From Candidatus Falkowbacteria bacterium CG10_big_fil_rev_8_21_14_0_10_44_15 (GTDB lineage Bacteria; Patescibacteriota; Patescibacteriia; Patescibacteriales; XYC2-FULL-47-12): 50,738 nt of DNA. The notes below the pieces were generated by a model. That model ran no database searches and had not been told where the DNA came from. It saw only the letters and a program-made list of their open reading frames with translations. The position numbers and the translations under genes were made by a program. Of the stretch, positions 7,611-31,075 are shown piece by piece. The stretch spans positions 1 through 50,738 of the forward strand of contig PFAT01000021.1 of NCBI GenBank assembly GCA_002773575.1. The letters are read 5' to 3'. The stretch's first letter is position 1, and every line of letters begins with the position of its first letter.

Positions 7611-7650
7611 CCAGTCTCCCGAAGTACTTCGGGAGACTGGATTGTTTTTT
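7611..7650 (+). terminator. Rho-independent terminator
   Basis: CCAGTCTCCCGAAG-TA-CTTCGGGAGACTGG (13-14-bp stem) is followed by ATTGTTTTTT. It lies 67 nt after the surface-protein stop. Confidence 0.85.
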
Positions 7651-7683: not shown

Positions 7684-7723
7684 ACATTAAAACACCAGAA
7701 CACCAGAACATTAAAACAATAGA
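7684..7723. repeat. Intergenic octamer array ACATTAAA ACACCAGA ACACCAGA ACATTAAA ACAATAGA
   Basis: Five 8-nt units in an A-B-B-A-like order. The array ends 1 nt before a TATAAT (7725-7730) and starts just after CTGACA (7681-7686). It shares GACATTAAAACA with the intragenic array at 18903. Confidence 0.8.
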
Positions 7724-12999: not shown

Positions 13000-13025
13000 A
13001 GTAAATAAATAAAAGTTAAAAAAAT

Positions 13026-13052
13026 AAAAGCCGCTCTGGGGCGACTTTTTTT
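13026..13052. terminator. Possible bidirectional terminator between convergent genes
   Basis: AAAAGCCGCTCTGGGGCGACTTTTTTT. The imperfect stem is flanked by an A-run and a T-run. The structure is weak. Confidence 0.35.
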
Positions 13053-13065
13053 GTTACTAATAAAT

Positions 13066-14232
13066 TTAACGGCTATACAAATTGGCTGTTTTTTTTATCA
13101 TAGTCTGTAAGCCGTATTTAGCGATTACTTGTTTATTAGCCTCAACTCCTATTTGTTTACTAACGGACGAACGGTTTAGGGCGTAACTTAATTTATCCGC
13201 TAAAGCGGCGGCGTTGCCGGACTTAACCAACAGCCCGGTTTGGCCATCGGTAATTATTTCCGGAATGGCGCCGACGGGTGTCGCCACAATCGGCAAACCC
13301 GCTTGCATCGCTTCCAAGATGGAATAGGGCAGGCCTTCTTTAACGGAAGAACAGACATAAATATCAAAAGCCGGCAGAAGTTGAGCGGCGTCGCCAATTG
13401 AACCCGTTAGAATTATTTTATTTTGTAATTCGCAATTGTTAATTCGTAATTGCAAATTGTTTTGTTCAGGGCCGGAGCCAATGATAATTAACTTAATATT
13501 GGATATTGGATATTGCCTGCCTGCCGGCGAGGCAGGGATATTGGATATTTTTATTGCTTCAATAAGATACTCGTAGCCCTTATTTTTGTATAGATTGCCG
13601 ATAGAGCCGATAAGTATCGTTTGGTCGTCAATTGGCGCGCCAGTTATTTTTGCCAGTCGCGCGCGCGCTTCCGGCCGTGATAAAAAGTCCATGGGCGCGA
13701 TGCCGTTGTAAATGACGCTTATTTTTTTTGCGGGCGCAATTTGACGCCGCACAGTATTTTGTTTTTCAAATTCAGAAAGGCAAATTATGTTAGTTTTTAA
13801 TTTTGCCGTCCATTTTTCCAATAGCAAGTAAAAGGTTTTTTTCCGCCAAGGCAGATTTTCATTAAACACCCAGCCGTGCACCGTATAGATTATTTTTGGC
13901 ACTTGACACCACCACGCGGCCAGCGAGCCGAGAATGCTGATTTTAGAGCTGTTTAAATGGACAATGTCCGGCTTTTCTGTCTGAATTAAATGTACAATTT
14001 GCCAAAAAGCTGACCAATCATGCCAAGGGGAAATAGCCCGTTTTAAGCGTGAGAGCGGTAGATAGCGAATGCCGGACTTATTGAGTTTTTTTGCCAATTC
14101 TCCCTCATAACCTTGCCCACCACTGGCGACTACAATAGTAAAATTTTCGCTAAGGTTAGTAGCTAAATCGTAGACATATCGTTGCGCTCCGCCAAAGTCT
14201 GATTGGGTGACAAGGTAAAGTATTTTTAACAT
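13066..14232 (-). CDS. GT4-family (GT-B) glycosyltransferase
   Basis: 388 aa. The N-terminus reads MLKILYLVTQSDFGGAQRYV. The C-domain has GNLYKNKGYEYL...IIIGSGPE...SSVKEGLPYSILEAMQAGLPIVATPVGAIPEII (EX7E region). It carries two repeat arrays. Confidence 0.85.
   Translation of the reverse strand: MLKILYLVTQSDFGGAQRYVYDLATNLSENFTIVVASGGQGYEGELAKKLNKSGIRYLPLSRLKRAISPWHDWSAFWQIVHLIQTEKPDIVHLNSSKISILGSLAAWWCQVPKIIYTVHGWVFNENLPWRKKTFYLLLEKWTAKLKTNIICLSEFEKQNTVRRQIAPAKKISVIYNGIAPMDFLSRPEARARLAKITGAPIDDQTILIGSIGNLYKNKGYEYLIEAIKISNIPASPAGRQYPISNIKLIIIGSGPEQNNLQLRINNCELQNKIILTGSIGDAAQLLPAFDIYVCSSVKEGLPYSILEAMQAGLPIVATPVGAIPEIITDGQTGLLVKSGNAAALADKLSYALNRSSVSKQIGVEANKQVIAKYGLQTMIKKTANLYSR
13418..13459 (-). 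repeat. In-frame heptamer array (coding sense CAATTTG CAATTAC GAATTAA CAATTGC GAATTAC AAAATAA)
   Basis: 6 x 7 nt = 42 nt. It encodes NLQLRINNCELQNK at the position of the usual ..L..ELGI.D.V.F.G helix/loop. Confidence 0.8.
13496..13551 (-). repeat. In-frame heptamer array interrupted by a 21-nt GC-rich palindrome
   Basis: On the plus strand the units read ATATTGG ATATTGG ATATTGC | CTGCCTG CCGGCGA GGCAGGG | ATATTGG ATATTTT. A hairpin CCTGCC-GGCGA-GGCAGG lies at 13520-13536. The array encodes KISNIPASPAGRQYPISNIK. Confidence 0.8.
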
Positions 14233-14350
14233 ATGATGATTGACTTTTTTGTCTATTTATTAAATAATACCTTATAGAATAGCTAAATTCAAGTATGCTA
14301 TTTAAACTAAGATATAATCTTAGTTTATTTTGATATTATTAAATTTTTTT

Positions 14351-15220
14351 ATGAAAAAATTAATCGGGTTTTGCGGCCAGGGCTGGATTGGCAAAAATTA
14401 CGCCGACAATTTTGGGGAGCGCGGCTATGAAGTAGTGCGTTACGCCAAGGAAGAGCCGTACGTTAAAAATAAAGAAGCTGTTAAAAATTGCGATATCGTT
14501 TTTATCGCCGTGCCGACGCCCACCACGCCGCAAGGATTTGACGACGGCATTTTGCGTTCGGTCGTGCCGTTGGTGGGAGAAGGCAAAATCGCCGTCATTA
14601 AATCAACAGTATTACCCGGCACGACCGAATCAATTCAGGCCGAGAACAAAAATATTTTCGTAATGCACTCGCCGGAATTCCTGACGGAGAGCAGCGCCGC
14701 TTATGACGCGGCTAACCCCAACCGCAACATCGTCGGGATTGCGGAAGACAGCGATGCGCACCGGGCCAAAGCGAAAGAGGTGATGGAGGTTTTACCGTAC
14801 GCGCCTTATCAATTAGTTTGCCGCGCGCGCGAGGCGGAACTGATTAAATATGGCGGCAATTGCTGGTTTTTTTTCAAAGTTATTTTTATCAACATGCTTT
14901 ACGACTTGGCGCAGAAGTCGGGCGTGCAATGGGAGACGGTGCAGGATGCGATGGCCGCTGACCCCAGAATCGGCCGCACTCATTTGAATCCCATCCATCA
15001 AGGCGGGCGCGGCGCCGGCGGGCATTGCTTTATCAAAGATTTCGCGGCTTTTACCGACATTTACCGGCGTCAGTCAGGCGATAATTTAGGCAGGCAAGCG
15101 CTGGAAAGTTTAGCGCAAAAAAATATAGATTTACTCATTAAGAGCAAAAAAGACATTGATTTGCTAAAGGGAGTGTATGGCGATAAAGTGATCGGTGATA
15201 AACTGGCCGGTAATCAATAA
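14351..15220 (+). CDS. Short UDP-glucose/GDP-mannose dehydrogenase-family protein lacking the C-terminal nucleotide-sugar-binding domain
   Basis: The start is taken at ATG 14351 (MKKLIGFCGQGWIG gives the GxGxxG motif); the track's TTG at 14330 is rejected. The catalytic-Cys motif is GGRGAGGHCFIKD. The protein ends about 64 aa after that Cys and is only ~289 aa long. Confidence 0.75.
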   Translation: MKKLIGFCGQGWIGKNYADNFGERGYEVVRYAKEEPYVKNKEAVKNCDIVFIAVPTPTTPQGFDDGILRSVVPLVGEGKIAVIKSTVLPGTTESIQAENKNIFVMHSPEFLTESSAAYDAANPNRNIVGIAEDSDAHRAKAKEVMEVLPYAPYQLVCRAREAELIKYGGNCWFFFKVIFINMLYDLAQKSGVQWETVQDAMAADPRIGRTHLNPIHQGGRGAGGHCFIKDFAAFTDIYRRQSGDNLGRQALESLAQKNIDLLIKSKKDIDLLKGVYGDKVIGDKLAGNQ

Positions 15221-15245
15221 CCAACTAACTTTTTATATCAAAAAT

Positions 15246-15305
15246 ATGAATAAATGCCTGGTTACGGGAGGGGCGGGGTTTACCCCCGCACCGGTAATTA
15301 TTTAA
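15246..15305 (+). pseudogene. 5' stub of an SDR epimerase gene (19 codons)
   Basis: ATG AAT AAA TGC CTG GTT ACG GGA GGG GCG GGG TTT ... TAA translates to [19 protein letters not shown]. It carries the TGGAGF Rossmann motif of the intact genes at 15351 and 16250. Confidence 0.4.
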
Positions 15306-15350
15306 AATAGTTTTTGGGATTACTTCATTTAATTTTTTTGATTAAATTTT

Positions 15351-16247
15351 ATGAATATATTAGTTACAGGTGGCGCGGGGTTTATCGGTTCTAACCTCGT
15401 TGACGCGCTGATTAAGCGCGGCGATGAAGTCGTTATTTTGGATAATTTATCTACCGGCAAACGGGAAAATATTAATCCGCAAGCGCAATTTATTGAAGTT
15501 GACTTGCGCGATTTAGAAAAAATAAAGCCGTATTTCAGCGGCGTGAATTATGTTTTCCACTGCGCGGCGCTGGCGCGGGTACAGCCCTCAATTGAGGACC
15601 CGGTTAAATATAACGACCATAATGTCAACAGCACCCTGAATGTGCTCGTCGCCGCGCGCGACGCGAAAGTAAAAAAAGTAGTTTATTCCGCCTCTTCTTC
15701 CGCTTACGGCAATCAAACGCAAATGCCGCTTAAAGAAGATATGCCGCCACAGCCAATGAGTCCCTATGGACTGCAAAAATATATCGGCGAAGAATATTGC
15801 CGTTTGTTTTTCATAGTTTATAAATTGCCAACCGTTTGTTTGCGTTACTTCAACGTGTACGGGCCGCGGATGGCGACCGTTGGCGCTTATGCCTGCGCGA
15901 TTTCAATTTTTGGCCAGCAGCGCAAACAAGGCCAGACGATGACGGTCGTCGGAGACGGCCAGCAGCGCCGGGACAACACGTTTGTCGGCGACGTAGTACG
16001 GGCCAATATTTTAGCCGCTGACAGTGGCCTTGGGGACGGGCGCTCGATTAATATCGGTCGAGGCAAGAATAACAGCGTCAATGAAATGGCCGCGATGATT
16101 GGCGGACCAACAACGAATTTGCCGCCGCGCCTTGAACCGCGGGAAACGCTCGCTGATAATTCGCTCGCGCGCGAATTGCTCGGCTGGGAGCCGAAAGTTA
16201 ATTTAGAAGAGTGGATTTTAGAATATAAAAAGGAGTTAGGAATTTAG
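15351..16247 (+). CDS. NAD-dependent nucleotide-sugar epimerase/dehydratase (extended SDR)
   Basis: [21 protein letters not shown] and the catalytic [11 protein letters not shown] (YxxxK). Confidence 0.85.
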
Positions 16248-16249
16248 CT

Positions 16250-17173
16250 ATGAAAATATTAATAACCGGCGGCGCGGGGTTTATCGGCTCTCATCTGTGC
16301 GAAAAGCTATTGGAGCAAGGGCACGCCGTCGTTTGTTTGGATAATTTTTTTACCGGCTCCAAAGATAATGTTAAGCATTTATTAGCTGATGAAAATTTTA
16401 AAGTGGCTGAACAAGACGTAGAGAGTCCGTATGATTTCGCCGTTGACCAAATTTATAATTTAGCTTGTCCGGCGGCGCCGATTTGGTATCAAAAAGATCC
16501 GGTAAAAACCGTGCGGACAAACGTGTTAGGCGCGATTAACGCTTTGGAATTAGCTAAGCGCATCGGCTGCCCGATGCTGCATACTTCCACCTCGGAGGTA
16601 TACGGCGACCCCGCAGTGCATCCGCAGCCGGAAAGTTACTGGGGCAACGTGAATCCCATTGGCGTGCGCGCCTGCTACGACGAAGGTAAACGTTGCGCCG
16701 AAACTTTATGTTTTGATTATTACCGCGAACATCAGGTCGGCATAAAAGTAGTCAGGATTTTTAACACTTACGGACCGCGGATGGCGATAGCCGACGGACG
16801 GGTAGTTTCTAATTTTATTATTCAAGCGCTGCGCGGCGAAGCCATTACTATTTACGGCCGGGGCGAACAAACGAGAAGCTTTTGTTATGTTGCTGATATG
16901 GTTGAGGGATTAATCAAAATGATGGCCAGCAGTTTTAGCGGGCCGGTTAATTTAGGCAACCCGGCTGAATTTAGCGTTCGGGAGCTGGCGGCTAAAATAT
17001 TAAAGTTAACGAACTCGCGCTCCCAAATTATCTGCCAGGATTTACCTGCCGATGACCCAAAGCAGAGGCAGCCCGATATTAATTTAGCTAAAGAAAAATT
17101 AAATTGGGATCCAGAAGTTAATTTGGATGATGGTTTAATAAAAACTATTGAATATTTCAGAGGTATTTTATGA
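16250..17173 (+). CDS. uxs: UDP-glucuronate decarboxylase (UDP-xylose synthase)-like SDR
   Basis: [84 protein letters not shown] and [10 protein letters not shown] form the characteristic UXS signature. Confidence 0.85.
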
Positions 17174-18303
17174 GAATTTTAATTTTGGCTACTGCTTATA
17201 TCCCTCATGTCGGCGGCGCGGAAGTGGCGGTTAAAGAAATAACTAAGCGGCTGGAACGCCAGTTTGAAATGATTACGGTGCGGCTGAAAAAAGCGGATGC
17301 GGCTGAAGAACAGGTAGGCAACATCAAAGTTTATCGTTTGGGTTTTGGCTTAGGCAGAATTGACAAATACTTTTTTCCTTTCCGGGCGGCTCGGCTCGCA
17401 AATAAATTGCACCGGCAAAATCATTACGATGTCGTTTGGTCAATTATGGCGAGCTGGTCCGGCTTTGCCGCTTTATTTTTTTGCAAAAACAGCAGCGTTA
17501 AATTTTTGCTGACTTTGCAGGAAGGGGATGATTTGCGCGTGCCAGTGAGGAAATCTCTGATGGTACATCATTGGTTTAAACAAATTTTTCAACGCGCTGA
17601 TTACATCCAATGCATTTCCAGCTATTTAGCCGATTGGGCGAAAAAAATGGGAGCGACCTGTCCGATAGAGGTAGTGCCGAATGGAGTGGACCTGGAAAAA
17701 TATCAAATATCAAATATCAAATATCAAACAAATCACAAATCACAAAATCAAAATTCAAAAATTATTCTCACTACCTCGCGTTTAGTGCAAAAAAATGGAA
17801 TAGTAGATTTAATAGAAGCTACTGCGTTACTCATTACCCATTACTCATCACCCGTTACTTTAGTAATCTGTGGCGATGGCGAGGAAAGAAAGAAGTTAGA
17901 AGTTAAAAGTAAGCAGTTAGGCATTGCCGATGAAGTAAAATTTATGGGTTTTGTAAAGCCGGAAGAATTGCCAAAATTTTACGCGATTGCCGATGTATTC
18001 TGCCGGCCGTCTCTTTCCGAAGGGTTAGGCAACTCTTTTTTGGAAGCGATGGCCGCGGGCGTGCCGGTAGTGGCAACGCCGGTCGGCGGCATCCCTGATT
18101 TTTTACGGGACGGCAAGACCGGCTGGTTTTGTAGAGTTAATGACCCGGCAAGCATTGCGGAAAAAATAAAATATATTTTGGATGAACAAAATAAAGCAGA
18201 AGCGCAGAAAGTAATAAATAACGCGAAGCAAATGGTTTTAGACAAATACGATTGGGATGGCATTGCCGGTCAAATGGAAAATATTTTTAAGGCACTTAAA
18301 TGA
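17170..18303 (+). CDS. GT4-family glycosyltransferase
   Basis: 377 aa with an ATGA overlap with the upstream gene. Motifs are [14 protein letters not shown] and [33 protein letters not shown]. It carries two repeat arrays. Confidence 0.85.
17701..17763 (+). repeat. In-frame heptamer array (TATCAAA)x4 CAAATCA CAAATCA CAAAATC AAAATTC AAAAATT
   Basis: 9 x 7 = 63 nt = 21 codons. It encodes [21 protein letters not shown] in the GT-B interdomain linker between VPNGVD and the SRL..KG motif. Confidence 0.85.
17827..17861 (+). repeat. In-frame heptamer array TTACTCA TTACCCA TTACTCA TCACCCG TTACTTT
   Basis: Encodes [12 protein letters not shown] just before the beta-strand VICGDGEE. It is related to the TTACCCG array at 20641. 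Confidence 0.7.
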
Positions 18304-19946
18304 ATACGGCTATCAAAATTTATCAATTTTTAAAGAAATGTTTTAAACGTTTCGCGCCCCGCCGCGTAAGTTTGCTGGTAGAACAATACAAAATTGGCAT
18401 CAAATATGTTATTTCCGGCGGCACCGCCGCCGTGGTTGATTTAGGTTTATTGTTTTTGTTAACGGAAATTGCGGGCATATGGTATTTACTGTCGGCAGTG
18501 ATGGCTTTTATTTGTTCTCTGGTTATCGCTTTTTTACTGCACAAATTCTGGACTTTTCGCGAGAGCTCCCTGCACCGAATAAAAAAACAGTTTATTTTTT
18601 TCACTTCAATTGCGTTGCTTAATTTAGGATTAAATACCTTACTCCTCTATGTTGCCGTTGATGTTTTAAACATCTGGTATATGGCAGCCCAATTTGTGAT
18701 TATGGGCGCGCTCGCCTTTATGAATTTTGTCATCAACAAAACAGTTACCTTTCGGCGCGAAAACAAGGACGGCAACAATATTTTAATCGCGACCGGCATC
18801 TATCCGCCCGACATCGGCGGACCGGCGACATACACTAAAATATTGAGCGAGGAACTGCCTAAACTGGGGTGGGAAGTTAAAGTTGTCACTTATAGCGATG
18901 GAGACATTAAAACATTAAAACATAAAAACATAAAAACAAACGATGCGGCAGTTTTTCAAATCAGCAGAAAACAGCATATTTTTTTACGTTATTTTCAATA
19001 TTTTTGGCAAGTTTTGAAATTATTAAATTGGGCGAATATTGTTTACGCCCAAGGCCCGGTGAGCGAGGGATTGCCAACATATTGGGCGTGCAAATTGCGC
19101 GGACGAAAATATGTTTTAAAAATAGTTGGCGACTATGCTTGGGAGCAAATGCAAGTATCAAGAAAACAAGAAAACCAGAAAACAGAAAAGCAAGGATTTA
19201 TTTCATTAGATGAATTTCAAAATAAAAAATTTGATGCGCGGACGGAACGAAAGAGGCGAATTGAAAAATTGGTTGCCCGCAACGCAGATAAAGTTATTGT
19301 ACCGAGCCAGTATTTAAAAAAAATTGTTAAGGGATGGGGCGTGCCGGAAAATAAAATTAACGTTATTTACAATGCGGTTGAATTTAAATCAATCCCGCCC
19401 GTACTTAAGCCTGCAAATGAAAGATGGCTGGTATCTGTCGGCCGGCTCGTGCCTTGGAAAGGCATGGACGCGCTGATTGATATTATGCCGTCGCTAGTGC
19501 GGTCAGAACCAGCCTTAAAATTGATCATTATCGGCGAGGGGCCGGAACAAGAGCAATTAAAAATTAAAAGTGAAAAATTAAAAATTGAAGGACAAATCAG
19601 AATGCTGGGTCGGTTGGAACACGAGCAGACTTTAGCATATATTAAAGCGGCGGATGTGTTGGTGCTTAATACCGGCTATGAAGGGCTATCGCATCTGTTG
19701 CTGGAAGCGTTGCATCTGGGCGTTCCGGTTGTGACGACTAATGTCGGCGGCAATCCGGAAGTGATTCAAAATGGCATTAATGGGTTGTTGGTGGAATATA
19801 ATAATCAAACACAACTTAAAGAAGCGATTTTGCGTTTACTTAATTCGCAGGAATTAGCGCGCAAGTTTGTATTAGCCGGCAGACAAGATTTAACTAAATT
19901 TAGCCAAAAAAAAATGATTGCAGACGCCATAGCGGTAATAAATTAA
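18300..19946 (+). CDS. GtrA-like 4-TM domain fused to a GT4 glycosyltransferase
   Basis: The N-terminal ~150 aa read YVISGGTAAVVDLGLLFLLTEIAGIWYLLSAVMAFICSLVIAFLLHKFWTFR plus two more TM helices (GtrA family pattern). The remainder is GT-B: ILIATGIYPPDIGGPATY, GRLVPWKG, GYEGLSHLLLEALHLGVPVVTTNVGGNPEV. It carries three repeat arrays. Confidence 0.8.
   Translation: MNTAIKIYQFLKKCFKRFAPRRVSLLVEQYKIGIKYVISGGTAAVVDLGLLFLLTEIAGIWYLLSAVMAFICSLVIAFLLHKFWTFRESSLHRIKKQFIFFTSIALLNLGLNTLLLYVAVDVLNIWYMAAQFVIMGALAFMNFVINKTVTFRRENKDGNNILIATGIYPPDIGGPATYTKILSEELPKLGWEVKVVTYSDGDIKTLKHKNIKTNDAAVFQISRKQHIFLRYFQYFWQVLKLLNWANIVYAQGPVSEGLPTYWACKLRGRKYVLKIVGDYAWEQMQVSRKQENQKTEKQGFISLDEFQNKKFDARTERKRRIEKLVARNADKVIVPSQYLKKIVKGWGVPENKINVIYNAVEFKSIPPVLKPANERWLVSVGRLVPWKGMDALIDIMPSLVRSEPALKLIIIGEGPEQEQLKIKSEKLKIEGQIRMLGRLEHEQTLAYIKAADVLVLNTGYEGLSHLLLEALHLGVPVVTTNVGGNPEVIQNGINGLLVEYNNQTQLKEAILRLLNSQELARKFVLAGRQDLTKFSQKKMIADAIAVIN
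18904..18943 (+). repeat. In-frame octamer array ACATTAAA ACATTAAA ACATAAAA ACATAAAA ACAAACGA
   Basis: Encodes (D)IKTLKHKNIKTND. Unit 3 is the one read in the phase where T5-A6-A7 would be a TAA codon, and it has T5->A. Confidence 0.8.
19159..19198 (+). repeat. In-frame octamer array CAAGAAAA CAAGAAAA CCAGAAAA CAGAAAAG CAAGGATT
   Basis: Encodes SRKQENQKTEKQG. It shares CCAGAA with the intergenic array at 7692-7707. Confidence 0.75.
19555..19596 (+). repeat. In-frame heptamer array AATTAAA AATTAAA AGTGAAA AATTAAA AATTGAA GGACAAA
   Basis: Encodes QLKIKSEKLKIEGQ at the ELGI..V.F.G position. Units 3 and 6, which are read in the TAA-generating phase, are the ones that deviate at T4. Confidence 0.8.
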
Positions 19947-19951
19947 TTTTG

Positions 19952-21034
19952 ATGAAAATTCTAAGCATCAGTTTGGATAAAAACATACTAGACAAAGATT
20001 CAGCCGCGGCCAAACGGATGGTTGAATATGGAAATTTGGTTGAACGATATACGATATTAGTTTTGGCGGATAGAGACCAAGAATTTGGTTTATCAGACAA
20101 AGTTAAAGTTATTGCCATCCGAAAAAGCAATAAATTTTTTAGCTTATTAAAATTAAAAAGGAGAGCCGCAGAGGTTTTAAATTCTGAAAACTATAACATC
20201 ATCACCGTACAAGATGCATACTTCATCGGTTTGATAGCGCTAAAATTAGCAAAAAAATTCCATCTCGGCTTAGAGGCGCAGGTGCACGGATTTGAAAAAT
20301 TCAGCGGCGCAAGAAAGTTGCTGGCCAAAAAAGTTTTGCGAAATGCAGATGCAGTGCGGGTCGTCAGCCAAAGATTAAAGCGTCAGCTAATTAGCGATTT
20401 TGGTGTAGCAGAAAGAAAAATAACGGTAGTGCCTATCTATTCAGAGCATAGAACATGTAACACGCAACACATAACATATACAAATGATAAATTTATTTTT
20501 TTGACGGTTGGGAGATTAGTGCCGGTGAAAAATGTTTCCTTGCAAATTAAGGCGATGCGACATATTGTAAAACAATTTCCACAGGCAGAACTATGGATTG
20601 TCGGCGATGGCGAGCAAAGGCAGGCATTAGAGGAATTGTGTTACCCGTTACCCGTTACCCGTTACGTGAAGTTTTTTGGCTGGCAGGAAAATGTGGAGAA
20701 ATTTTATCGGCAAGCCGATGTGTTTTTACTTACTTCCAACAGCGAAGGTTGGGGGTTAGCCGTGGTTGAGGCGGCGGCGCAGGGTTTGCCTATAATTATG
20801 ACTGGTGTCGGACTAGCTGGGGAGGTTATAAAAGACAAAGAAAGCGGAATCGTAATTCCGGTTGGCGACCAAAAAGAATTAGAAAAGGCAATGGCAGTAT
20901 TAACAGAAGATCAAGAATTAAGGGAGAAGCTGGGTAGGAACGCGGCAGAAGTAGTGAAAAAATTTCCGAGTAAAGAGGAGACATTAGCGCTGTATAAAAA
21001 ATCATGGCAGACGGCCGTAGATAATAAAATATGA
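19952..21034 (+). CDS. GT4-family glycosyltransferase
   Basis: The start is taken at ATG 19952 (MKILSISLDKN); the track start at 19949 is TTG. Motifs are GRLVPVKN and TSNSEGWGLAVVEAAAQGLPIIMTGVGLAGEVI. It carries two repeat arrays. Confidence 0.8.
   Translation: MKILSISLDKNILDKDSAAAKRMVEYGNLVERYTILVLADRDQEFGLSDKVKVIAIRKSNKFFSLLKLKRRAAEVLNSENYNIITVQDAYFIGLIALKLAKKFHLGLEAQVHGFEKFSGARKLLAKKVLRNADAVRVVSQRLKRQLISDFGVAERKITVVPIYSEHRTCNTQHITYTNDKFIFLTVGRLVPVKNVSLQIKAMRHIVKQFPQAELWIVGDGEQRQALEELCYPLPVTRYVKFFGWQENVEKFYRQADVFLLTSNSEGWGLAVVEAAAQGLPIIMTGVGLAGEVIKDKESGIVIPVGDQKELEKAMAVLTEDQELREKLGRNAAEVVKKFPSKEETLALYKKSWQTAVDNKI
20450..20491 (+). repeat. In-frame heptamer array AGAACAT GTAACAC GCAACAC ATAACAT ATACAAA TGATAAA
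   Basis: Encodes RTCNTQHITYTNDK in the interdomain linker before FIFLTVGRL. Unit 3 has C rather than T at the position that would otherwise create an in-frame TAA. Confidence 0.7.
20641..20668 (+). repeat. Perfect heptamer array (TTACCCG)x3 + TTACGTG
   Basis: Encodes (C)YPLPVTRYV at the ELGI..V.F.G position. The unit has no stop in any phase. Confidence 0.85.
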
Positions 21035-21639
21035 ATCCGTGGGATGCGTTTAGCAAAGAAAAATTGAAGAAAATTTTTACGGAAAAAAGGACCATCATTG
21101 ATATCGGCGGCGGTCTTCGTATTGACGGCGCGCGCAGCAACCGGTTTGACAAAAAGAACGAATGGCTTAACGAATACCTGCCCTGGGTTGAGTACAAAGT
21201 GCTGGACAAGGTCGCCGATTATCATCCAGACATCGTGGGAGATATACATAAATTGCCGCTCGAAGATAATAGCATTGACGCTATCCTTTGCATTGCCGTA
21301 TTAGAGCATGTGGAAGAGCCGCAAAAAGCTATAAAAGAGATGTACCGAGTGCTCAAGCCCGGGGGATATTGTTTTATTTATGTGCCCTTTCTATACTACT
21401 ATCACCCTCTGCCAGGGTATTACGGCGATTTTTACCGCTTTACACGGGACGGGGTACGGTATTTGACTAAAAATTTTAAAGCGACAGAAATACAGAATGT
21501 GCGCGGCGCTTTGGCAACGGTGGCAAATTTACTGCCTTTTTTTTCCAAAAAAACCGGCATATTAAACTGGCTGGATAAAGTTTTGGGGAAACAGGCGAGT
21601 AACCAAACAAGCGGCTATAACATTTTTTGCGTTAAATAA
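21031..21639 (+). CDS. Class I SAM-dependent methyltransferase
   Basis: IIDIGGG (motif I), D..PDIVGDIHKLPLEDNSIDAILCIAVLEHVEEP, MYRVLKPGGY. ATGA overlap with the upstream gene. Confidence 0.8.
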   Translation: MNPWDAFSKEKLKKIFTEKRTIIDIGGGLRIDGARSNRFDKKNEWLNEYLPWVEYKVLDKVADYHPDIVGDIHKLPLEDNSIDAILCIAVLEHVEEPQKAIKEMYRVLKPGGYCFIYVPFLYYYHPLPGYYGDFYRFTRDGVRYLTKNFKATEIQNVRGALATVANLLPFFSKKTGILNWLDKVLGKQASNQTSGYNIFCVK

Positions 21640-21663
21640 GTTTTAATTTATGATCATATCATT

Positions 21664-22635
21664 ATGCCGAAAGCTCTTATAACCGGCATCACCGGACAAG
21701 ACGGCTCGTATTTGGCGGAATTACTCCTGGCAAAAGGCTACGAAGTGCACGGTCTGGTGCGCCGCGTTGCAGTTGAAGACCCGGCGCAGAGGCTGGGGTG
21801 GATACGGCATATTTTAGATAAAATAACACTGCATTCAGGCTCATTGGAGAGTTACGCAAGCATTTTCAGCATCGTGGAAAGAGTCAAACCTGATGAGTGC
21901 TACCACTTAGCGGCGCAGAGCTTTGTGGCCGTATCGTTTGAGGACACTTTTTCAACGCTCAACACCAACATCAACGGCACGCTCTATGTGCTGGCGGCGC
22001 TGAAAGAACGCGCACCGCATTGCCGTTTCTATTTCGCCGGTTCCAGCGAAATGTTCGGCAAGGTGCGCGAGACGCCGCAGAACGAACAGACTCTGTTTCA
22101 TCCGCGCTCGCCCTATGGCATCTCAAAAGTGACCGGCTTTGACATCACGCGCAACTACCGCGAAGCCTATGGGATGTTTGCTTGCAACGGCATCTTATTT
22201 AACCACGAATCAGAGCGCCGCGGCATGGAGTTTGTAACGCGCAAGATTACGAGCGGCGTCGCGGGAATTAAAGCGGGTAAACAAAACAAACTCTCCTTAG
22301 GTAATTTGGACGCGCGTCGCGATTGGGGTTACGCGCCGGAATACGTAGAGGCAATGTGGTTGATGTTACAGCAGAAAGAGCCGGATGATTACGTTATCGC
22401 TACCGGCGAGGCGCATAGCGTGCGAGAGTTCGTGGAAGCGGCCTTCGCCACAGTTGATTTGGATTGGCGGCAATACGTTGTCATTGACGAGCGTTTAAAG
22501 CGGCCGGCAGAGGTTGACCTGCTGGTGGGGGATATTACCAAAGCAAAAAAAATACTGGGCTGGCAGCCGCGGATATCTTTTTTGGAGTTGGCAAAAATTA
22601 TGGTCGCGCATGATTTAAAGATGTTAACATCGTAG
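21664..22635 (+). CDS. gmd: GDP-mannose 4,6-dehydratase
   Basis: ALITGITGQDGSYLAELLLAKGYEVHGLVRR, GSSEMFG, SPYGISKV and ACNGILFNHESERRG form the diagnostic Gmd signature. Confidence 0.92.
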   Translation: MPKALITGITGQDGSYLAELLLAKGYEVHGLVRRVAVEDPAQRLGWIRHILDKITLHSGSLESYASIFSIVERVKPDECYHLAAQSFVAVSFEDTFSTLNTNINGTLYVLAALKERAPHCRFYFAGSSEMFGKVRETPQNEQTLFHPRSPYGISKVTGFDITRNYREAYGMFACNGILFNHESERRGMEFVTRKITSGVAGIKAGKQNKLSLGNLDARRDWGYAPEYVEAMWLMLQQKEPDDYVIATGEAHSVREFVEAAFATVDLDWRQYVVIDERLKRPAEVDLLVGDITKAKKILGWQPRISFLELAKIMVAHDLKMLTS

Positions 22636-22644
22636 CGCCTTAAT

Positions 22645-23700
22645 ATGAAATTATTGATTATTACCCAAAAAGTTGATAGCGATGACGACGTACTGGGATT
22701 TATGCATGCTTGGATTTCGGAGTTTGCCAAAGCATGCGAACGGGTGACGGTTATCTGTCTGCAGCAAGGGAAATATCATTTCCCGGAGAATGTTAAGGTT
22801 TTATCTTTAGGCAAAGAAACCGGCAAGTCACGGCTAAAGTACCTGTTTAATTTTTATCGATACATTTGGCAGGAGCGGAAAAATTACGAGGCGGCGTTCG
22901 TGCACATGAATGAAGTGTACGTTATGTTAGGGTGGCTTGGCTGGAAATTGGGGCGTAAAAAGATAAGTTTGTGGTACGCGCACGGGCATGTTTCTTTCAG
23001 CCTGAAAATAGCCGCCAAGTTGGCTGATGTTATTTTTACTTCAACCAAAAGCGGCTTTCGTCTGCCGAGCAAAAAAGTGCGGGTCATCGGGCAAGGAATA
23101 GACGCCAATAAATTTCAAATTAAAAATTACGAATTACGAATTAATGATAAATTTAAAATTGTTTCAGTGGGGAGAATTTCACCGTCCAAAGATTACGCCA
23201 CTTTAATTAACGCCACTGCCATTTTGACTAAAGAATATGCGGGGATAGAAGTCAATATTATTGGCGGTCCGGCTACTGCCGCTGACCAAAACTACTTAAA
23301 GGAGACGCGGCAATCGGTTAAAGATAAAAATTTAGGGCAGATAATAAAATTTATCGGCCCCGTAGCTAATAAAAATTTGGTTTCTTATCTGCAAGCAGCC
23401 GACCTGTTCGTTAACATGAGCCGTACCGGCAGTTTGGACAAAGCGATGCTGGAAGCGGCTGCGTGCGGCTTGCCCATACTGACCTGCAATGAGGCGATGC
23501 CGGAAGTATTAGGCCCTTATACAGATAAACTGATGTATGAGACAGGCAATAGCCGGCAGTTGACTGATAAGATAAAAAGTTGCATTATGTGGGGAGAGAA
23601 AGAAAGGCGACGCCTTGGCTATGAGCTGCGTAAGATAGTAGTGCAAAAGCACAGTTTGCCGGAATTTATAAAAAAAATATTATCCATTTTAAACAATTAA
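22645..23700 (+). CDS. GT4-like (GT-B) glycosyltransferase
   Basis: 351 aa. Motifs are GQGID, VGRISPSKD and SRTGSLDKAMLEAAACGLPILTCN. It carries one repeat array in the interdomain linker. Confidence 0.75.
   Translation: MKLLIITQKVDSDDDVLGFMHAWISEFAKACERVTVICLQQGKYHFPENVKVLSLGKETGKSRLKYLFNFYRYIWQERKNYEAAFVHMNEVYVMLGWLGWKLGRKKISLWYAHGHVSFSLKIAAKLADVIFTSTKSGFRLPSKKVRVIGQGIDANKFQIKNYELRINDKFKIVSVGRISPSKDYATLINATAILTKEYAGIEVNIIGGPATAADQNYLKETRQSVKDKNLGQIIKFIGPVANKNLVSYLQAADLFVNMSRTGSLDKAMLEAAACGLPILTCNEAMPEVLGPYTDKLMYETGNSRQLTDKIKSCIMWGEKERRRLGYELRKIVVQKHSLPEFIKKILSILNN
23111..23152 (+). repeat. In-frame heptamer array AATTTCA AATTAAA AATTACG AATTACG AATTAAT GATAAAT
   Basis: Encodes KFQIKNYELRINDK. 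Units 3 and 6, in the TAA-risk phase, read TAC and AAA instead. Confidence 0.8.
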
Positions 23701-24704: not shown

Positions 24705-24727
24705 GTTTTATTCATAACAATTACCAA

Positions 24728-25714: not shown

Positions 25715-25727
25715 AATAGCTAATGAT

Positions 25728-27486: not shown

Positions 27487-27490
27487 AATA

Positions 27491-29179
27491 ATGTTTGCTA
27501 TCCGTCAATACGTTGCTAAATACATAAATTATCATACGGCTTTGATTGCTATATTGGCAATTGCATTTTTGTTGCACATCCCCGGCCTATTTTATAGCTT
27601 CCCCCTTAAAAATACCGTTGGCGATGAAGTGACGACCATGGGAGCAATCTTTAAAATGATGGACGACCAAAGCTTGCGACCCGACTATCAATCGTTTTAT
27701 CATCTGCCGGTAACCGCCTACGCGCAGTTGCCGTTTTACGCCGCGCTGGTTTTGTTTTTGAAGTTTTCCGGTTTATTCGCTGATTTTACGGAATTAAAAA
27801 AATTTGTAATTTTGGATTACGGCTACTTTTTGCCGTTCGCGCGGCTTATCACCGCTTTATTCGCCACGGCGGCCGGTTACCTAATGTACAAATTAGCGAA
27901 CCGCATTTTTGTAAATAAAAAAGTAGCCGTGTTGGCAAGTTTTCTACTGTCGTTTAACTTGATGTTTTTTCAGGTAACGCATTTTGCCCGCGCCTGGGCT
28001 TTGCAGATTTTGTTGTTATTGACAGCCGTCTATGTTTATTATGTTTTTTTCACCAAAGACAAACCCCGAGCGAAGGACTATTTTTTGATCAGCTTAGTCA
28101 CCGCTCTGGCGCTGGGGGTACACTTAGCGAGCGCTTTAGTTTATTTAATTTTTTTAACATTGTATTTTAACAAGCACCACTGGCGAGATTTCGTAAGTTT
28201 GCGTCCCGGCTGGTGGAGCCGTTATCGCCATTTCGTCTACTTGCAACTTTATATTATAGGGTGGCTTGGGCTTTGGTATTATCTTAACCCCACCGGATTT
28301 CTTATTTATCTCCAGCAACCCGGCATTGAAAGCGTAAGCCGCGACTGGACCCTATGGAGCAACATCGCTTTTTACGGCAAAATATTCTTTAATTATGACG
28401 CCTGGTTAGCGGTAGCGGCCATACCGGCGTTAATTTTATTTTATAAAAGATACCCAGCGCTCTGCTTTGGTTTTGTTGCTTTCATTTTGGCGTGGGTGAT
28501 TTCTATTGCCTATTCAATCCATTCGGAGCCGCGCTTTATCATTGCTACGATTCCTTTCTTAATTTTGCCAGTGAGTTATTTCCTAGTTTGGCTGGCGGAT
28601 AGATTGGCAAAATCATGGCAACGTTTATTATGGTATTTAGTTATAATAGTGATAGTAATGTATCTGCCGCTCTTATGGACAAAAGACATCCTTAAGCCGA
28701 ACACCTTACTGCTGGCGCGGCGATGGATTTTGGACAATGTTCCCTCTGATGCGGTGATACTATCAGGCAACCCTTATCTTGATTTGCCGGAAAATCAAGC
28801 GGCGGCGCTCTATCTTAGAGCGTTGAGCCCTAAAAAAGACACGGTTGAGCGGCGGTTTATCATTGCCGCTGACCCGCTAGATTTGCCTAAACCGCGCTAT
28901 TTTGTTGTCACGGCGCAAGGGCTCGGCGGCATCGCCGATAGTTTTAAAGATATTTTGCCGGATCTTCAGTACGCGGTTATTTCTTTTTGGAATAATGAGG
29001 AGCGCGCAGTCGTTAGGCGCAACGCATCTGCGCTGAACATGAATTTACTGCAGGCATATTATCCGCTGTCGGCGCCGGCAGACGCAGCCGACATCGCCAA
29101 TAACATGCTTCATCCTTACGCTGACTTGCGGCAGGTTGAAAAAACCGGGCCGTTTGTGGAAATATATAAAGTTAATTAA
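27491..29179 (+). CDS. GT-C fold membrane glycosyltransferase (PMT_2/ArnT-like)
   Basis: The start is taken at ATG 27491 (MFAIRQYV). The track's 27434 start would overlap the GT2 gene by 53 nt. About 11 TM helices are present. The first loop carries an acidic motif (VGDEVTTMG). A soluble C-terminal domain follows. It lies directly downstream of a polyprenyl-P GT2. Confidence 0.7.
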   Translation: MFAIRQYVAKYINYHTALIAILAIAFLLHIPGLFYSFPLKNTVGDEVTTMGAIFKMMDDQSLRPDYQSFYHLPVTAYAQLPFYAALVLFLKFSGLFADFTELKKFVILDYGYFLPFARLITALFATAAGYLMYKLANRIFVNKKVAVLASFLLSFNLMFFQVTHFARAWALQILLLLTAVYVYYVFFTKDKPRAKDYFLISLVTALALGVHLASALVYLIFLTLYFNKHHWRDFVSLRPGWWSRYRHFVYLQLYIIGWLGLWYYLNPTGFLIYLQQPGIESVSRDWTLWSNIAFYGKIFFNYDAWLAVAAIPALILFYKRYPALCFGFVAFILAWVISIAYSIHSEPRFIIATIPFLILPVSYFLVWLADRLAKSWQRLLWYLVIIVIVMYLPLLWTKDILKPNTLLLARRWILDNVPSDAVILSGNPYLDLPENQAAALYLRALSPKKDTVERRFIIAADPLDLPKPRYFVVTAQGLGGIADSFKDILPDLQYAVISFWNNEERAVVRRNASALNMNLLQAYYPLSAPADAADIANNMLHPYADLRQVEKTGPFVEIYKVN

Positions 29180-29188
29180 GAGATTAAT

Positions 29189-31075
29189 ATGTGCGGCATC
29201 GCCGGTTATTTTGGCAGCGGCAGCCAAGAAATTTTAGCAAAGATGACAAACGCACTTCGCCATCGCGGACCCGATGACGAAGGTTTTTATTTAGACGGCC
29301 AAGTCGGGTTAGGGCACCGGCGGCTTTCTATTATTGACTTATCTCCCGCCGGGCATCAGCCCATGAGTAACGACGGCCAAGACATCTGGCTGGTTTTTAA
29401 CGGCGAGATTTATAATTTTAGGGAATTGCGACAGGAACTTATTAGTCAGGGCTATAAATTTAAAAGTAATTCCGACACCGAAGTCATTATTAATTTATAC
29501 GCAGCCATTGGCGTTGAGGCATTCAAAAAATTAAACGGCATGTTCGCGGCCGCTTTATACGACGCGCGCCAAGATAAGCTGATTTTAGCGCGCGACCGCT
29601 TAGGCAAAAAGCCGCTGTATTGGGGAATTTTTGGCGCTACTTTAATTTTTGGCTCGGAGTTAAAGGCATTACTGCAACATCCTGATTGCCGGCGGGAGAT
29701 TAACTTAGAATCATTAAATAAATACTTGCTTTATGAATATGTGCCGACGCCGCGTTCAATTTTCAAAGGCATTCATAAATTAGAGCCGGGGCATTATTTA
29801 TCTTATGACGGCCGAAAAGTTGTTAAAACAAAATTTTGGGAAATAACCTTTAAATTACCAATTACCAATTACCAATTACGAATTCAGGAGGTGATGAATG
29901 AGCTGGGGAATAAAATTAATGCGGCGGTAAAGGCGCGGTTAGTGAGCGACGTGCCCTTGGGGATTTTTTTAAGCGGCGGCATTGACAGTTCAACGATTGC
30001 TTACTACGCGCAGCAAAACAGCGTTAAGCCAATAAAAACTTTTTCCATCGGCTTTAAAGAAGACAGCTTTGACGAATCAAAATACGCCCGCTTAGCCGCC
30101 AAACATTTAGGCGCCGAGCATTATGAAAAAATATTAAGCGCTAAAGATTCTTTGGATTTAATCCCGCGCATCGCTGATTTATTGGATGAGCCTCTCGGAG
30201 ACGCTTCAATACTGCCGACCTATTTATTGTCTGAATTTACCAAAGAAAAAGTAACGGTCGCTTTGGGCGGGGACGGCGGCGACGAATTATTTTGCGGCTA
30301 TGATACTTTTCCGGCGGAAAAATTCGCGGCAATTTACGAAAAAATTCCGTTAATTATTAGAAGACAAATAATTGAAAGAGTAGCTCTTAACTTGCCTGTT
30401 TCTTTTAAAAATATCAGTTTTGATTTTAAACTAAAAAAATTTATCGCCGGTGGCGGAGAAAAAAACATCCGGCGGCGCCACGCAAGTTGGCTTGGCTCTT
30501 TTAGCCGCGAGCGGCGCGCGCAGCTTTTTACCCCCGAAGTCTGGCGTGAACTGCAAGCAGTTAACGAATACGAAGAGCTGGATGCTTATGAAGCAAACGT
30601 CAGGGAGCAGCCCGACTGGAATAAGTTGATTTATGCTTATTTGAGAACATATCTAATGGATGATATACTGGTAAAAGTTGACCGCGCGAGCATGGGCAAC
30701 GCGCTGGAGGTGCGGGCGCCTTTTTTGGATTTTTCCGTCGTTGATTTCGTTAACAGCCTCCCGTTTGAGTTTAAAATGAAAGGTTTAATTACTAAGTTTA
30801 TTTTGAAAGAACTGATGAAAGATAAACTGCCGATAGCAATTGTCAATCGCCAGAAGAAAGGTTTTGGCATTCCGCTGGCGCAATGGCTGACGGCAGATTT
30901 GCGGCCGCTGCTGGATGAATTATTATCGGAAGGTTATCTACGGCGACAAGGTTTGTTTAATTCCGTTTTTGTTTCTAAATTAGTCAAAGACCATATTGAG
31001 CGCCGGGCGGATAATAGAAAGCCGCTTTGGACTCTGCTTTGTTTTCAGTTGTGGCAGAAAAGGTGGTTAAAATAA
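29189..31075 (+). CDS. asnB: Asparagine synthase (glutamine-hydrolysing) family amidotransferase
   Basis: MCGIAGYFG (Ntn Cys2), HRGPDD, SGGIDSS (PP-loop), 628 aa. In glycan clusters this family usually amidates uronic acids (WbpS-like role; inference). Confidence 0.9.
   Translation: MCGIAGYFGSGSQEILAKMTNALRHRGPDDEGFYLDGQVGLGHRRLSIIDLSPAGHQPMSNDGQDIWLVFNGEIYNFRELRQELISQGYKFKSNSDTEVIINLYAAIGVEAFKKLNGMFAAALYDARQDKLILARDRLGKKPLYWGIFGATLIFGSELKALLQHPDCRREINLESLNKYLLYEYVPTPRSIFKGIHKLEPGHYLSYDGRKVVKTKFWEITFKLPITNYQLRIQEVMNELGNKINAAVKARLVSDVPLGIFLSGGIDSSTIAYYAQQNSVKPIKTFSIGFKEDSFDESKYARLAAKHLGAEHYEKILSAKDSLDLIPRIADLLDEPLGDASILPTYLLSEFTKEKVTVALGGDGGDELFCGYDTFPAEKFAAIYEKIPLIIRRQIIERVALNLPVSFKNISFDFKLKKFIAGGGEKNIRRRHASWLGSFSRERRAQLFTPEVWRELQAVNEYEELDAYEANVREQPDWNKLIYAYLRTYLMDDILVKVDRASMGNALEVRAPFLDFSVVDFVNSLPFEFKMKGLITKFILKELMKDKLPIAIVNRQKKGFGIPLAQWLTADLRPLLDELLSEGYLRRQGLFNSVFVSKLVKDHIERRADNRKPLWTLLCFQLWQKRWLK
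29853..29887 (+). repeat. In-frame heptamer array (AATTACC)x3 AATTACG AATTCAG
   Basis: Encodes LPITNYQLRIQ in the linker between the glutaminase and synthetase domains. It belongs to the same AATTACG family as the arrays at 23111 and 13418. Confidence 0.85.

Follow-up and report, generated by a model that had tools for sequence, protein, structure and literature searches.

Heptanucleotide repeats have been described from several bacterial genes and genomes. The neuO gene of E. coli K1, which encodes a capsule O-acetyltransferase, holds between 3 and 53 repeats of AAGACTC and is OFF in 65.6% of genomes (PMC13001214), and heptanucleotide phase variation is also known for the hmw and TonB-receptor genes of H. 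influenzae, with an (AATTTTG)14 tract in the middle of the hmw1A open reading frame (ORF) (PMC2651432). On the scale of whole genomes, heptameric tandem repeats are over-represented in bacteria, examples being GGGAATC in Xanthomonas and the cyanobacterial repeats (PMC4692102), and TAACTGA repeats are reported from Beggiatoaceae (PMC4679880). The intragenic tandem repeats of Borgs are perfect, and all their units are divisible by three (PMC9879509). Here, a family of short tandem arrays is described that lie within genes for GT4-type glycosyltransferases and have a unit of 7, in a minority 8, nucleotides (nt). The stretch of DNA from which the analysis started, called the window in what follows, is 50,738 nt long (contig PFAT01000021.1, forward strand) and carries a glycan cluster of Candidatus Falkowbacteria, which belong to the Patescibacteria or candidate phyla radiation (CPR). 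These bacteria are abundant and mostly uncultured; their genomes are very small, regulators are scarce, and many probably live attached to the cells of a host. Their surface glycans are a likely interface with hosts and phages.

The arrays form a Patescibacteria-wide, GT4-specific, three-site pattern, and this goes beyond an earlier note on the window, made from its letters, in which eleven arrays had been listed. We regard them as heptanucleotide (in a minority octanucleotide) microsatellites, filtered by the reading frame, in a few permissive segments of GT4 enzymes, where they probably act as low-frequency OFF, possibly ON/OFF, switches. The window contains eight GT4-type genes, of which five carry arrays, as does a gene for an AsnB-type amidotransferase; Pfam profiles uphold these identities. 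All arrays of the window are confined to 13.4-29.9 kb. The three remaining GT4-type genes (starts at 34935, 36654 and 47969) have none, nor do the GT2, epimerase, methyltransferase, aminotransferase and Wzy/TPR genes.

With our own scorer (+1 for a match, -2 for a mismatch, score of at least 13), the window yields six arrays of period 7, two of period 8 and three of period 14, and none or one for each other period between 4 and 15. When codons were permuted within each ORF, 200 shuffles gave a mean of 0.00-0.03 arrays per period; the excess is therefore specific to periods 7 and 8, and neither codon usage nor A+T richness accounts for it. An alignment of 44 homologues of the GT4 protein encoded at 17170-18303 was used for a metagenome scan, which gave 80 loci comprising 835 kb. 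These hold 135 arrays of period 7, 13 of period 8, 19 of period 14 and 7 of period 21, with at most five for every other period (none for 3, two for 6, five for 9), and close to zero in shuffled controls. The period-7 arrays have a median length of 31 nt, or 4.4 units, and a maximum of 52 nt; 41 of the 135 are perfect. More than 40 kinds of canonical unit occur, the commonest of which, AAATCTC, accounts for only nine of the 135 arrays. Arrays in intergenic or unassigned DNA are likewise mostly of period 7 (18) and 8 (7), so that the bias towards 7 nt is probably a property of the mutational process. For the heptamer excess of bacteria, an explanation by the polymerase footprint has been proposed (cited in PMC4692102).

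The distribution over genes is very uneven. Of the period-7 arrays in the 80 loci, 113 fall in 248 GT4-like genes (300.6 kb, 36% of the DNA), and four in 498 other genes (490 kb, 59%); the remaining 18 belong to DNA that is intergenic or unassigned (44 kb). Among the four, one lies upstream of the true start of an epimerase gene and one in an N-terminal fragment of a GT4 gene, which leaves a DNA ligase and a Wzy-type protein as genuine hosts outside the GT4 genes. Array-free are 16 of 16 GT2, 52 of 53 epimerase, 19 of 19 UDP-glucose dehydrogenase, 12 of 12 methyltransferase and 7 of 7 AsnB genes of these loci. The array-bearing GT4-like genes number 76 (one array in 45, two in 25, three in six), and they span paralogue groups whose identity in the window is only 23-33%. 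Three non-CPR genomes with GT4 homologues (L009, L010 and L012) have no arrays in about 40 kb, which is a small sample.

It could be imagined that the arrays are a neutral by-product: slippage biased towards 7 nt would seed them everywhere, they would survive wherever the DNA is nearly unconstrained, and the frameshift alleles presented below would be ordinary deleterious mutations. We hold this to be possible but doubtful. Intergenic and unassigned DNA does have as high a density (18 in 44 kb) as the GT4 genes taken as a whole (113 in 300 kb). However, at the three preferred sites of the GT4 genes the density is estimated at about 3 per kb (87 arrays in some 27 kb) against 0.4 per kb in intergenic DNA, roughly eightfold more, and the 490 kb of other genes, which include multidomain and surface proteins, contain only about two genuine arrays. 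Furthermore, a tolerant coding loop should favour periods of 3, 6 and 9, and no arrays of period 3, 6, 9 or 12 are present in the GT4 genes of the 80 loci; the few arrays found in other genes have mostly periods of 6, 9 and 12. The near absence of arrays from a 1.6 times longer stretch of other genes, the lack of in-frame periods and the difference in density together favour an advantage or mechanism that is specific to GT4 genes, for which switchability, loop diversification and recombination between arrays are candidates.

On the GT4 family profile, 36 arrays map to positions 180-199, 20 to positions 230-239 and 31 to positions 250-259, with 23 in unaligned parts. In structural terms, the three sites are the disordered linker that joins the two domains, a loop leading up to the xIxGDG strand and the helix that precedes V.F.G. 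For the 17170-18303 protein, the AlphaFold model (mean pLDDT 91.4, pTM 0.88) is a typical GT-B fold of the GT4 kind, with TM scores of 0.83-0.85 to BshA, MshA and sucrose-phosphate synthase, and the hosts have the two Rossmann-like domains and the Glyco_transf_4 and Glycos_transf_1 profiles of the family. Site 1 (amino acids (aa) 178-198) contains the only disordered stretch of the model (aa 186-193, pLDDT below 50) and lies between the N- and C-terminal domains. Site 2 (aa 220-231) comprises the end of helix 211-223 and the loop before strand 229-233, and site 3 (aa 241-251) is the surface helix 240-249. This confident model bears out the proposal, made in the earlier note, that the arrays occupy surface loops and linkers. 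The median array length of 31 nt is about that of the three segments. The arrays thus fall where the fold is predicted with least confidence or varies most, as neutral survival would also lead one to expect.

In the window, Tandem Repeats Finder (TRF) and inspection of the sequence confirmed the arrays where they had been placed. Nine of the eleven were found by TRF or by our own scan; the array at 20450-20491 is too degenerate to score alone, and one array, AGAAGTT at 17891-17920, had been missed. Three syntenic relatives, retrieved by a scan of a genome collection with the GtrA-GT4 protein as query, allow the sites to be followed. L006 (Candidatus Falkowbacteria bacterium RIFCSPLOWO2_02_FULL_45_15) has about 91% nucleotide identity to the window, L008 (a metagenome-assembled genome labelled 'uncultured Gammaproteobacteria') about 80% and L007 (Falkowbacteria CG10) about 70%.

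The first host, on the minus strand at 13066-14232, encodes a GT4 enzyme of 388 aa (Glycos_transf_1 2.2e-36, Glyco_transf_4 8e-26) and has two arrays. The one at 13418-13459, in the helix before V.F.G, is a degenerate 7-nt array of AATTACG/AATTAAC/AATTGCG on the coding strand (TRF period 14/21, score 47-58), encodes the peptide NNLQLRINNCELQNK at aa 258-272 and is conserved in L006 and L008. The other, at 13496-13551, occupies the loop before the xIxGxG strand and is made of CCAATAT (ATATTGG on the plus strand; 2.9 perfect copies by TRF); a GC-rich hairpin of 21 nt at 13516-13536, CCTGCCTGCCGGCGAGGCAGG, which encodes PASPAGRQ, interrupts it. In L008, the corresponding units are ATAGCGC, and the site is shorter by 30 nt.

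All other hosts are on the plus strand. The GT4 gene at 17170-18303 (377 aa, identified by Pfam and the model above) bears an array at each of the three sites. In the linker, at 17698-17763, 4.4 perfect units of TATCAAA (TRF unit AAATATC, 100% matches) are followed by a degenerate CAAATCA/CAAAATC tail; the corresponding unit is ATTTTAG in L006 and GTATCAA in L007. Between 17701 and 17763, the array extends over sequence whose counterparts in L006 and L007 have retained the common GT4 motif (KQELGVSADDKVIL and RKDLGIGKNNKVIV, respectively), with unchanged length. At site 2, 17827-17861 consists of 4.6 units of TTACTCA/TTACCCA (TRF period 7/14), with TTACCAG in L006 and AATATTA in L007. At site 3, 17891-17920 holds AGAAGTT x4.3 (found by TRF), a unit that recurs at the equivalent site in L037, L038, L040 and L046.

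The GtrA-GT4 fusion gene at 18300-19946 (548 aa, Pfam GtrA_DPMS_TM and GT4 domains) also has three arrays, all detected by TRF. An 8-nt array of ACATTAAA/ACATAAAA x4.4 lies in the N-terminal GT4 domain at 18904-18943 (96% matches, unit ACATAAAA); L006 has ACATTAAA too, and L008 (AAATATC x4.4) and L007 (7-mers of the AAACCCA type) have arrays that are both 21 nt longer than that of the window. A degenerate 8-nt array, CAAGAAAA x4.5, follows at 19159-19198, where L007 and L008 have non-repeat sequence, including a GC hairpin, GAGACGTGGCACTGCCACGTCTC, in L007. The third, at 19555-19596, is AATTAAA x4.6, deviating where TAA would be in frame. In the GT4 gene at 19949-21034 (361 aa, Pfam), the linker (aa 168-181) holds the degenerate array xTAACAy at 20450-20491, which is weak alone and aligns without gaps to the arrays of its orthologues. 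L008 (AACGCAT/AACGCGC x4.4) and L007 (TTTAAGA x5) have clean arrays exactly there; L006 is as the window. The segment before V.F.G of the same gene carries 3.7 perfect units of GTTACCC at 20640-20668 (TRF 100%), again without gaps and with the same unit in L006, GTTGCGC/GTTACGC in L008 and GAAGATT-like units in L007. The GT4 gene at 22645-23700 (351 aa, Pfam) has a single AATTAAA/AATTACG array in its linker (23110-23152, aa 156-170; TRF period 14, own score 15). Finally, the AsnB-type glutamine amidotransferase gene at 29189-31075 (628 aa; GATase_7 at aa 43-163, Asn_synthase at aa 241-623) contains AATTACC x4.6 at 29853-29887 (TRF 96%), which falls between the two domains (aa 222-233). L008 has AATTATC/AATTAAA at this place and L007 non-repeat sequence of equal length.

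Among these orthologues, sites are thus kept, length is mostly kept and units are changed. In several cases, one and the same substitution is repeated in every unit of an array, as with xTAACAy and xTAACGy or TTACCCG and TTRCGCG (L008), which points to homogenisation within the array and not to independent point mutation. The earlier note had argued for a process at the DNA level, filtered by ORF integrity, and against selection of a peptide motif, and the differing units and peptides at kept sites support this. Its claim that arrays overwrite existing segments without a change in length holds for most sites, which are free of gaps in up to four orthologues, and fails at 18904 (21 nt), at 13496 (30 nt) and between L037 and L040 (72 nt).

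Selection at the protein level for heptad-like or low-complexity linker peptides would account for the 7-residue periodic peptides, such as QISNIKYQ and RVSSIKYQVSSIRK, that the alignment of 44 homologues shows at the interdomain linker of many Patescibacteria. We consider this scarcely credible. The DNA period is 7 and not 21, so that a given unit passes through every reading phase; the model predicts disorder for the linker; and the peptides at a site are wholly different between orthologues while the 7-nt periodicity is retained, which rules out selection for a peptide motif. A dedicated writer, that is, an enzyme or retroelement adding or copying 7-nt repeats into GT4 genes in a templated, telomerase-like or diversity-generating retroelement-like manner, would fit the extreme restriction to one gene family and three sites, the length-neutral replacement and the recurrence of one identical, imperfect array of 36 nt among three L032 paralogues. 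It is nevertheless very improbable: no single template fits more than 40 different units, intergenic arrays exist as well, the window ORFs that were scanned contain no reverse transcriptase or recombinase domain, and no pair of template and variable repeats was found.

The earlier note had further observed that the arrays lie in the orientation whose units lack stop triplets, that perfect runs are built from units that are stop-free in all phases, and that arrays of TAA-containing units deviate where TAA would come into phase. These observations are correct in the window, and they are largely forced, since a perfect array of at least three 7-nt units can leave the frame open only if no phase of it holds a stop. 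More informative are those arrays of the 80 loci, 40 in number, in which the consensus unit does contain a stop triplet. All 44 would-be in-frame stops (44/44) have been removed from them, and at least 44 of their 74 deviations from periodicity fall in would-be stop codons, which make up 10.7% of the positions. With deviations concentrated there, these arrays are about as perfect as the frame permits. Units are stop-free in 77 of 117 cases on the sense strand and in 30 of 117 on the antisense strand, compared with 57% of random 7-mers of like composition.

Because their unit length is not divisible by three, the arrays are local hot spots for indels, and two natural alleles have lost whole units, with truncation of the enzyme. 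The first is found in contig L001 (ENA ERZ27293400), which is 99.88% identical to window 11017-31639 over 20.6 kb. Its sole indel, of 14 nt, corresponds to two TATCAAA units and splits the GT4 gene into ORFs of 240 and 119 aa instead of one of 377 aa. Three other sibling contigs have the four-unit TATCAAA allele, and two more (L016 and L017) end inside the array. L001 also has single-nucleotide polymorphisms at 29848 and 29896, on either side of the AsnB array. Since the 80 target orthologues had been chosen as full-length matches and are biased towards intact genes, truncated alleles were sought among the 64 members of 90%-identity protein clusters. A few truncated members were present, and one of these, L110 (ENA ERZ27254842), was verified at the DNA level; the clusters also gave three less clean disruptions, in L113, L111/L112 and L114. 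It is 99.54% identical to L006 over 3.7 kb, and its sole indel, of 7 nt, is one TTACCAG unit of site 2; the GT4 protein ends as ...VTSYQLL-stop at aa 229, with a separate C-terminal ORF of 116 aa, instead of reaching 378 aa. Both alleles concern orthologues of 17170-18303, in different arrays and different lineages. In a further cluster member, P0130 (cluster of P0002; 301 aa, from a read-level source), 77 residues that separate a pair of similar IA(D/E)K(V/I)K motifs are missing. Either short repeats may have mediated a deletion, or the assembly of reads may be chimeric.

On this basis, the following course of events can be proposed. The arrays would be created, and kept periodic, by strand slippage or unequal exchange that inherently prefers units of 7 nt. 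Selection on the protein would retain only the stop-free orientation, single-base deviations would persist where a perfect unit puts a stop in frame, and the total length would be held near that of the loop replaced. The loss of one or two units, which in wild populations truncates the enzyme before or within the donor-binding C-terminal domain, would make the arrays built-in low-frequency OFF, possibly ON/OFF, switches for surface-glycan genes. Slippage as the generator, the reversibility of the change and an adaptive value of the switching are what we infer from the patterns described above.

Several findings weigh against arrays that switch genes. Both frameshift alleles come from short-read MEGAHIT assemblies and are seen as contigs only, and no reversion from OFF to ON was observed. 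Ten of the eleven window arrays show no difference in any sibling contig, eight of eleven are 92-100% conserved between the window and L006 (median identity 95%), and no array indels occur in the pairs L007/L032, L064/L065, L094/L095, L103/L107 and L104/L105 (97.8-99.99% identity). None of the 248 GT4-like genes of the 80 loci, where the target orthologues were preselected as full-length, is split at an array. With their median of 4.4 units and 41 perfect cases out of 135, the arrays compare poorly with the longer tracts of classical phase variation. Moreover, the results explain neither the preference for 7 nt nor the array-free state of other proteins rich in surface segments or linkers. An all-against-all megablast of the loci gave no further 7-nt indels, in a search that is insensitive because high-scoring segment pairs tend to break at arrays. 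In assembled contigs, two clean changes in unit number (-2 and -1) thus stand against most arrays being invariant in pairs of 95-99.9% identity. Their short length, their stability in most comparisons and a reading frame that is hardly ever lost also suit a neutral origin.

An artefact is unlikely for the two alleles, for it can be reasoned that a k=21 cycle in a tract of 31 nt would remove 7 and not 14 nt, and that a tract of 27 nt forms no cycle. Apparent frameshifts in the GtrA-GT4 gene of L006 and in a GT4 gene of L007 were rejected, as they reflect runs of N in the records. The arrays are best described as indel hot spots, and not as hypermutable tracts of the classical kind. The idea of contingency loci, put forward in the earlier note, gains from the existence of whole-unit frameshift alleles in the wild, which contradict the uniform array length that the note had named as a refutation, and loses from the short, mostly invariant arrays and from the lack of split genes among the 248. 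Going further than the low-frequency switches that we favour, it is a tentative possibility that the arrays, present in about a third of the GT4 genes of Patescibacteria, constitute an evolved evolvability device, in which self-renewing frameshift switches, possibly also serving as recombination joints, vary the surface glycans of tiny epibiotic cells with few regulators under pressure from phages or hosts.

The arrays could also be recombination joints. Shared arrays of 25-35 nt at the borders of domains and modules would give paralogues of only 25-30% identity, or diverged orthologues, stretches that are alike. Whole domains, or segments such as the initial beta-alpha-beta unit in the C-terminal domain, could then be exchanged, leading to new glycosyltransferase combinations. 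This is an unlikely explanation, although several observations hint at it. When the window is compared with L006, the patch of greatest divergence (52-67% identity, the median being 95%) spans site 1 to site 3, and the homology of L008 breaks exactly at 17701 and resumes at 18004. However, mosaic patches extend across the whole cluster, and most of them are not bounded by arrays. Two different GT4 genes have the same unit in 8 of 111 pairs if they lie in one locus, compared with 82 of 6519 pairs between unrelated loci, but these counts include duplicated loci and one triple. An identity of 37 nt, AAAATATCAAATATCAAATATCAAATATCAAACAAAT, with a non-repeat tail included, links window 17696-17732 (the linker array of the GT4 gene at 17170) to L008 at about 6066-6102 (the N-domain site of the GtrA-GT4 gene), and suggests either that array sequence was copied between genes or that it converged. 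In addition, homology ends inside arrays in L111/L112 and L114. Here, chimeric metagenome assembly would yield the same junctions at shared repeats, and no reciprocal chimera was found. The diverged patch, the break at 17701 and the sharing of units are therefore not decisive.

The junctions themselves all lie exactly at array site 1. In L113, unrelated sequence of about 60 nt, which includes a stop, takes the place of the array; in L111 and L112, from two separate assemblies, homology ends inside the site-1 array; and in L114 the 22645 orthologue loses homology within its array, after which inverted heptamers appear. Chimeric assembly is possible for all of these. When the tails of L114, L111 and L113 were compared with all DNA of this analysis, they matched nothing except through arrays, so that rearrangement and chimeric assembly are indistinguishable. 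In favour of variable unit numbers, contig ends are enriched inside arrays: five of some 31 genuine contig ends, counted from coordinates, lie there, and arrays make up about 2% of the region. L016 starts in 13496, L016 and L017 end in 17698, L003 starts in 19555 and L005 ends in 23110. Sibling contig ends also cluster at about 17103, 25949, 30045-30115 and 32218-32425. As a separate observation, the window at 15330-23447 is a mosaic when compared with L006, with a median of 95% identity and many 60-nt windows of 63-83% (for example, 18630, 19650, 20790 and 21750-21990), which is typical of frequent recombination in a glycan cluster.

Some further features of the arrays and their surroundings deserve mention. 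Small GC-rich palindromes occur in frame inside ORFs exactly at array sites (window 13516-13536, L006 522-542, L007 5977-5999, L037 at about 2066-2140). L037 and L038 have a 72-nt insert with pieces of CCGCCTCGGCGG and GTGGCGGG beside an ACAAATT array, and related inserted peptides (PASPSEAGR, SAQGRSALGGGA, RRDPVHYKYNKVAGQ) are found in homologues. Possibly, such palindromes form one family of tiny insertion elements for which the permissive loops are a common location; the 21-nt hairpin of the window may resemble the very small dispersed repeats of cyanobacteria. In P0142/P0143 and in L047 at 15133-15165, TCGGATG arrays hold ATG in one phase and gene callers begin ORFs inside them (MSDVGCRMSDVGFR...), so that an array could in principle supply an internal start codon for a C-terminal fragment. 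In L007 at 364-1614 (identical in L032, about 1257-2555), a perfect ATTTTAG x4.6 array, with a stop in every phase, stands at the end of an ORF of 287 aa and separates it from one of 117 aa; a UDP-glucose dehydrogenase gene may be split by the array here. The UDP-glucose dehydrogenase gene of the window (14330-15220) is short, with 296 aa and only the N-terminal and central domains.

In intergenic DNA of the window, AAAGT/AAAGTAGAGT repeats of period 5/10/15 lie at 12983-13030 between convergent genes ending at 12999 and 13066, and AACACCAG x2.5-3.8 is found at 7689-7718, upstream of the gene at 7751 and just after a hairpin with a 13-bp stem (7611-7640). L007 contains five copies of a perfect 20-nt palindrome, ATTCCCGC(GAAA/TTTC)GCGGGAAT, mostly intergenic and paired (2553-2572, 2589-2608, 6761-6780, 12771-12790, 12807-12826), which looks like a REP-like or terminator-like dispersed repeat of the CG10 Falkowbacteria genome. 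Between 40000 and 48000, the window has a G+C content of 34-37% compared with about 43-45% in the array-bearing part. The genes there, for a GT2, a methyltransferase, two DegT-type aminotransferases, a GNAT protein and a C-methyltransferase, have no arrays, and the region may be a separately acquired sugar-modification module.

As regards the host, the near-identical sibling contigs stem from groundwater metagenomes, and those homologues of the 17170-18303 protein that have a named source are nearly all annotated as Patescibacteria, Falkowbacteria or related CPR groups. The contig of L008, CAYHIM010000008.1, is syntenic with the Falkowbacteria cluster at about 80% identity across 17 kb; its gammaproteobacterial label is thus probably an error of binning or taxonomy. 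A cyanobacterial affiliation, which heptamer repeats together with HIP1 would have indicated, was ruled out by the relatives among the Falkowbacteria and Patescibacteria and by the complete absence of HIP1 sites (GCGATCGC) from the window.

If a third of the GT4 genes do carry mutational switches, this would be a first hint of bet-hedging by simple sequence repeats in the CPR and in environmental non-pathogens, and a true evolvability device would amount to a contingency-locus system outside host-adapted pathogens with an architecture unlike any described. Even if the arrays are merely tolerated, they offer a clean natural experiment on the 7-nt preference of slippage and mark the truly unconstrained segments of the GT-B fold. 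On the practical side, arrays coincide with assembly breaks in this locus, yield split gene calls and may seed chimeric joins.

The earlier note had known of no described mechanism for such a pattern. This was too strong, as both an excess of heptameric repeats and heptanucleotide phase variation are on record (PMC4692102, PMC2651432, PMC13001214). A close likeness is to neuO, where a 7-nt unit also lies inside the ORF of a surface-glycan-modifying enzyme, the product is full length in only one repeat-number phase, and slippage is responsible (PMC13001214). However, neuO has one long 5' tract and measurable mixed populations within a strain, whereas here two to three short arrays per gene lie in mid-gene loops, many units are used, nearly all alleles are ON and units turn over at a fixed site. 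With the tetra- to octanucleotide contingency loci in lipopolysaccharide, adhesin and glycosylation genes of Haemophilus and Neisseria, the arrays share non-triplet repeats in genes for surface structures and frameshift alleles that fit a change in tract length: the tract is inside an ORF, and a change in unit number shifts the frame and truncates the product. The tracts of those pathogens, which are host-adapted, are long, perfect, variable among strains and not tied to a fold or a fixed position. In the groundwater CPR, the tracts are neither long nor nearly perfect and ON and OFF states are not both common; arrays that are mostly invariant, short and nearly all ON, compared with 65.6% OFF in neuO, do not show contingency behaviour of the Haemophilus/Neisseria type.

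The heptamer families of Calothrix/Nostoc, of Xanthomonas (GGGAATC) and of Beggiatoaceae (TAACTGA) resemble the arrays in that 7-nt repeats are in excess, other long periods are at normal levels, and length and sequence vary among close relatives. The over-representation is found here as well (135 arrays, compared with at most 19 for any other period), but those families are mainly intergenic with one or few units per genome, and here 84% of the arrays lie in GT4 ORFs and there are more than 40 units. The tandem repeats of Borgs are similar in that rapidly evolving, lineage-specific repeats in ORFs give rise to disordered regions (PMC9879509); unlike them, the arrays have a unit of 7 or 8 nt that is never in frame. 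Diversity-generating retroelements differ in both respects examined, for the scanned ORFs of the window lack a reverse transcriptase domain, and the variation is by whole tandem units and not between template and variable repeats. In the literature on Patescibacteria or the CPR combined with phase variation, simple sequence repeats or heptanucleotides, no description of GT4 arrays was found, and they are apparently undescribed in the CPR. The unit length, the logic of slippage and the surface-glycan targets are shared with known systems, and the presence of several short mid-gene arrays, at three positions of one fold, with dozens of units turning over in an uncultured environmental radiation, sets the arrays apart from them.

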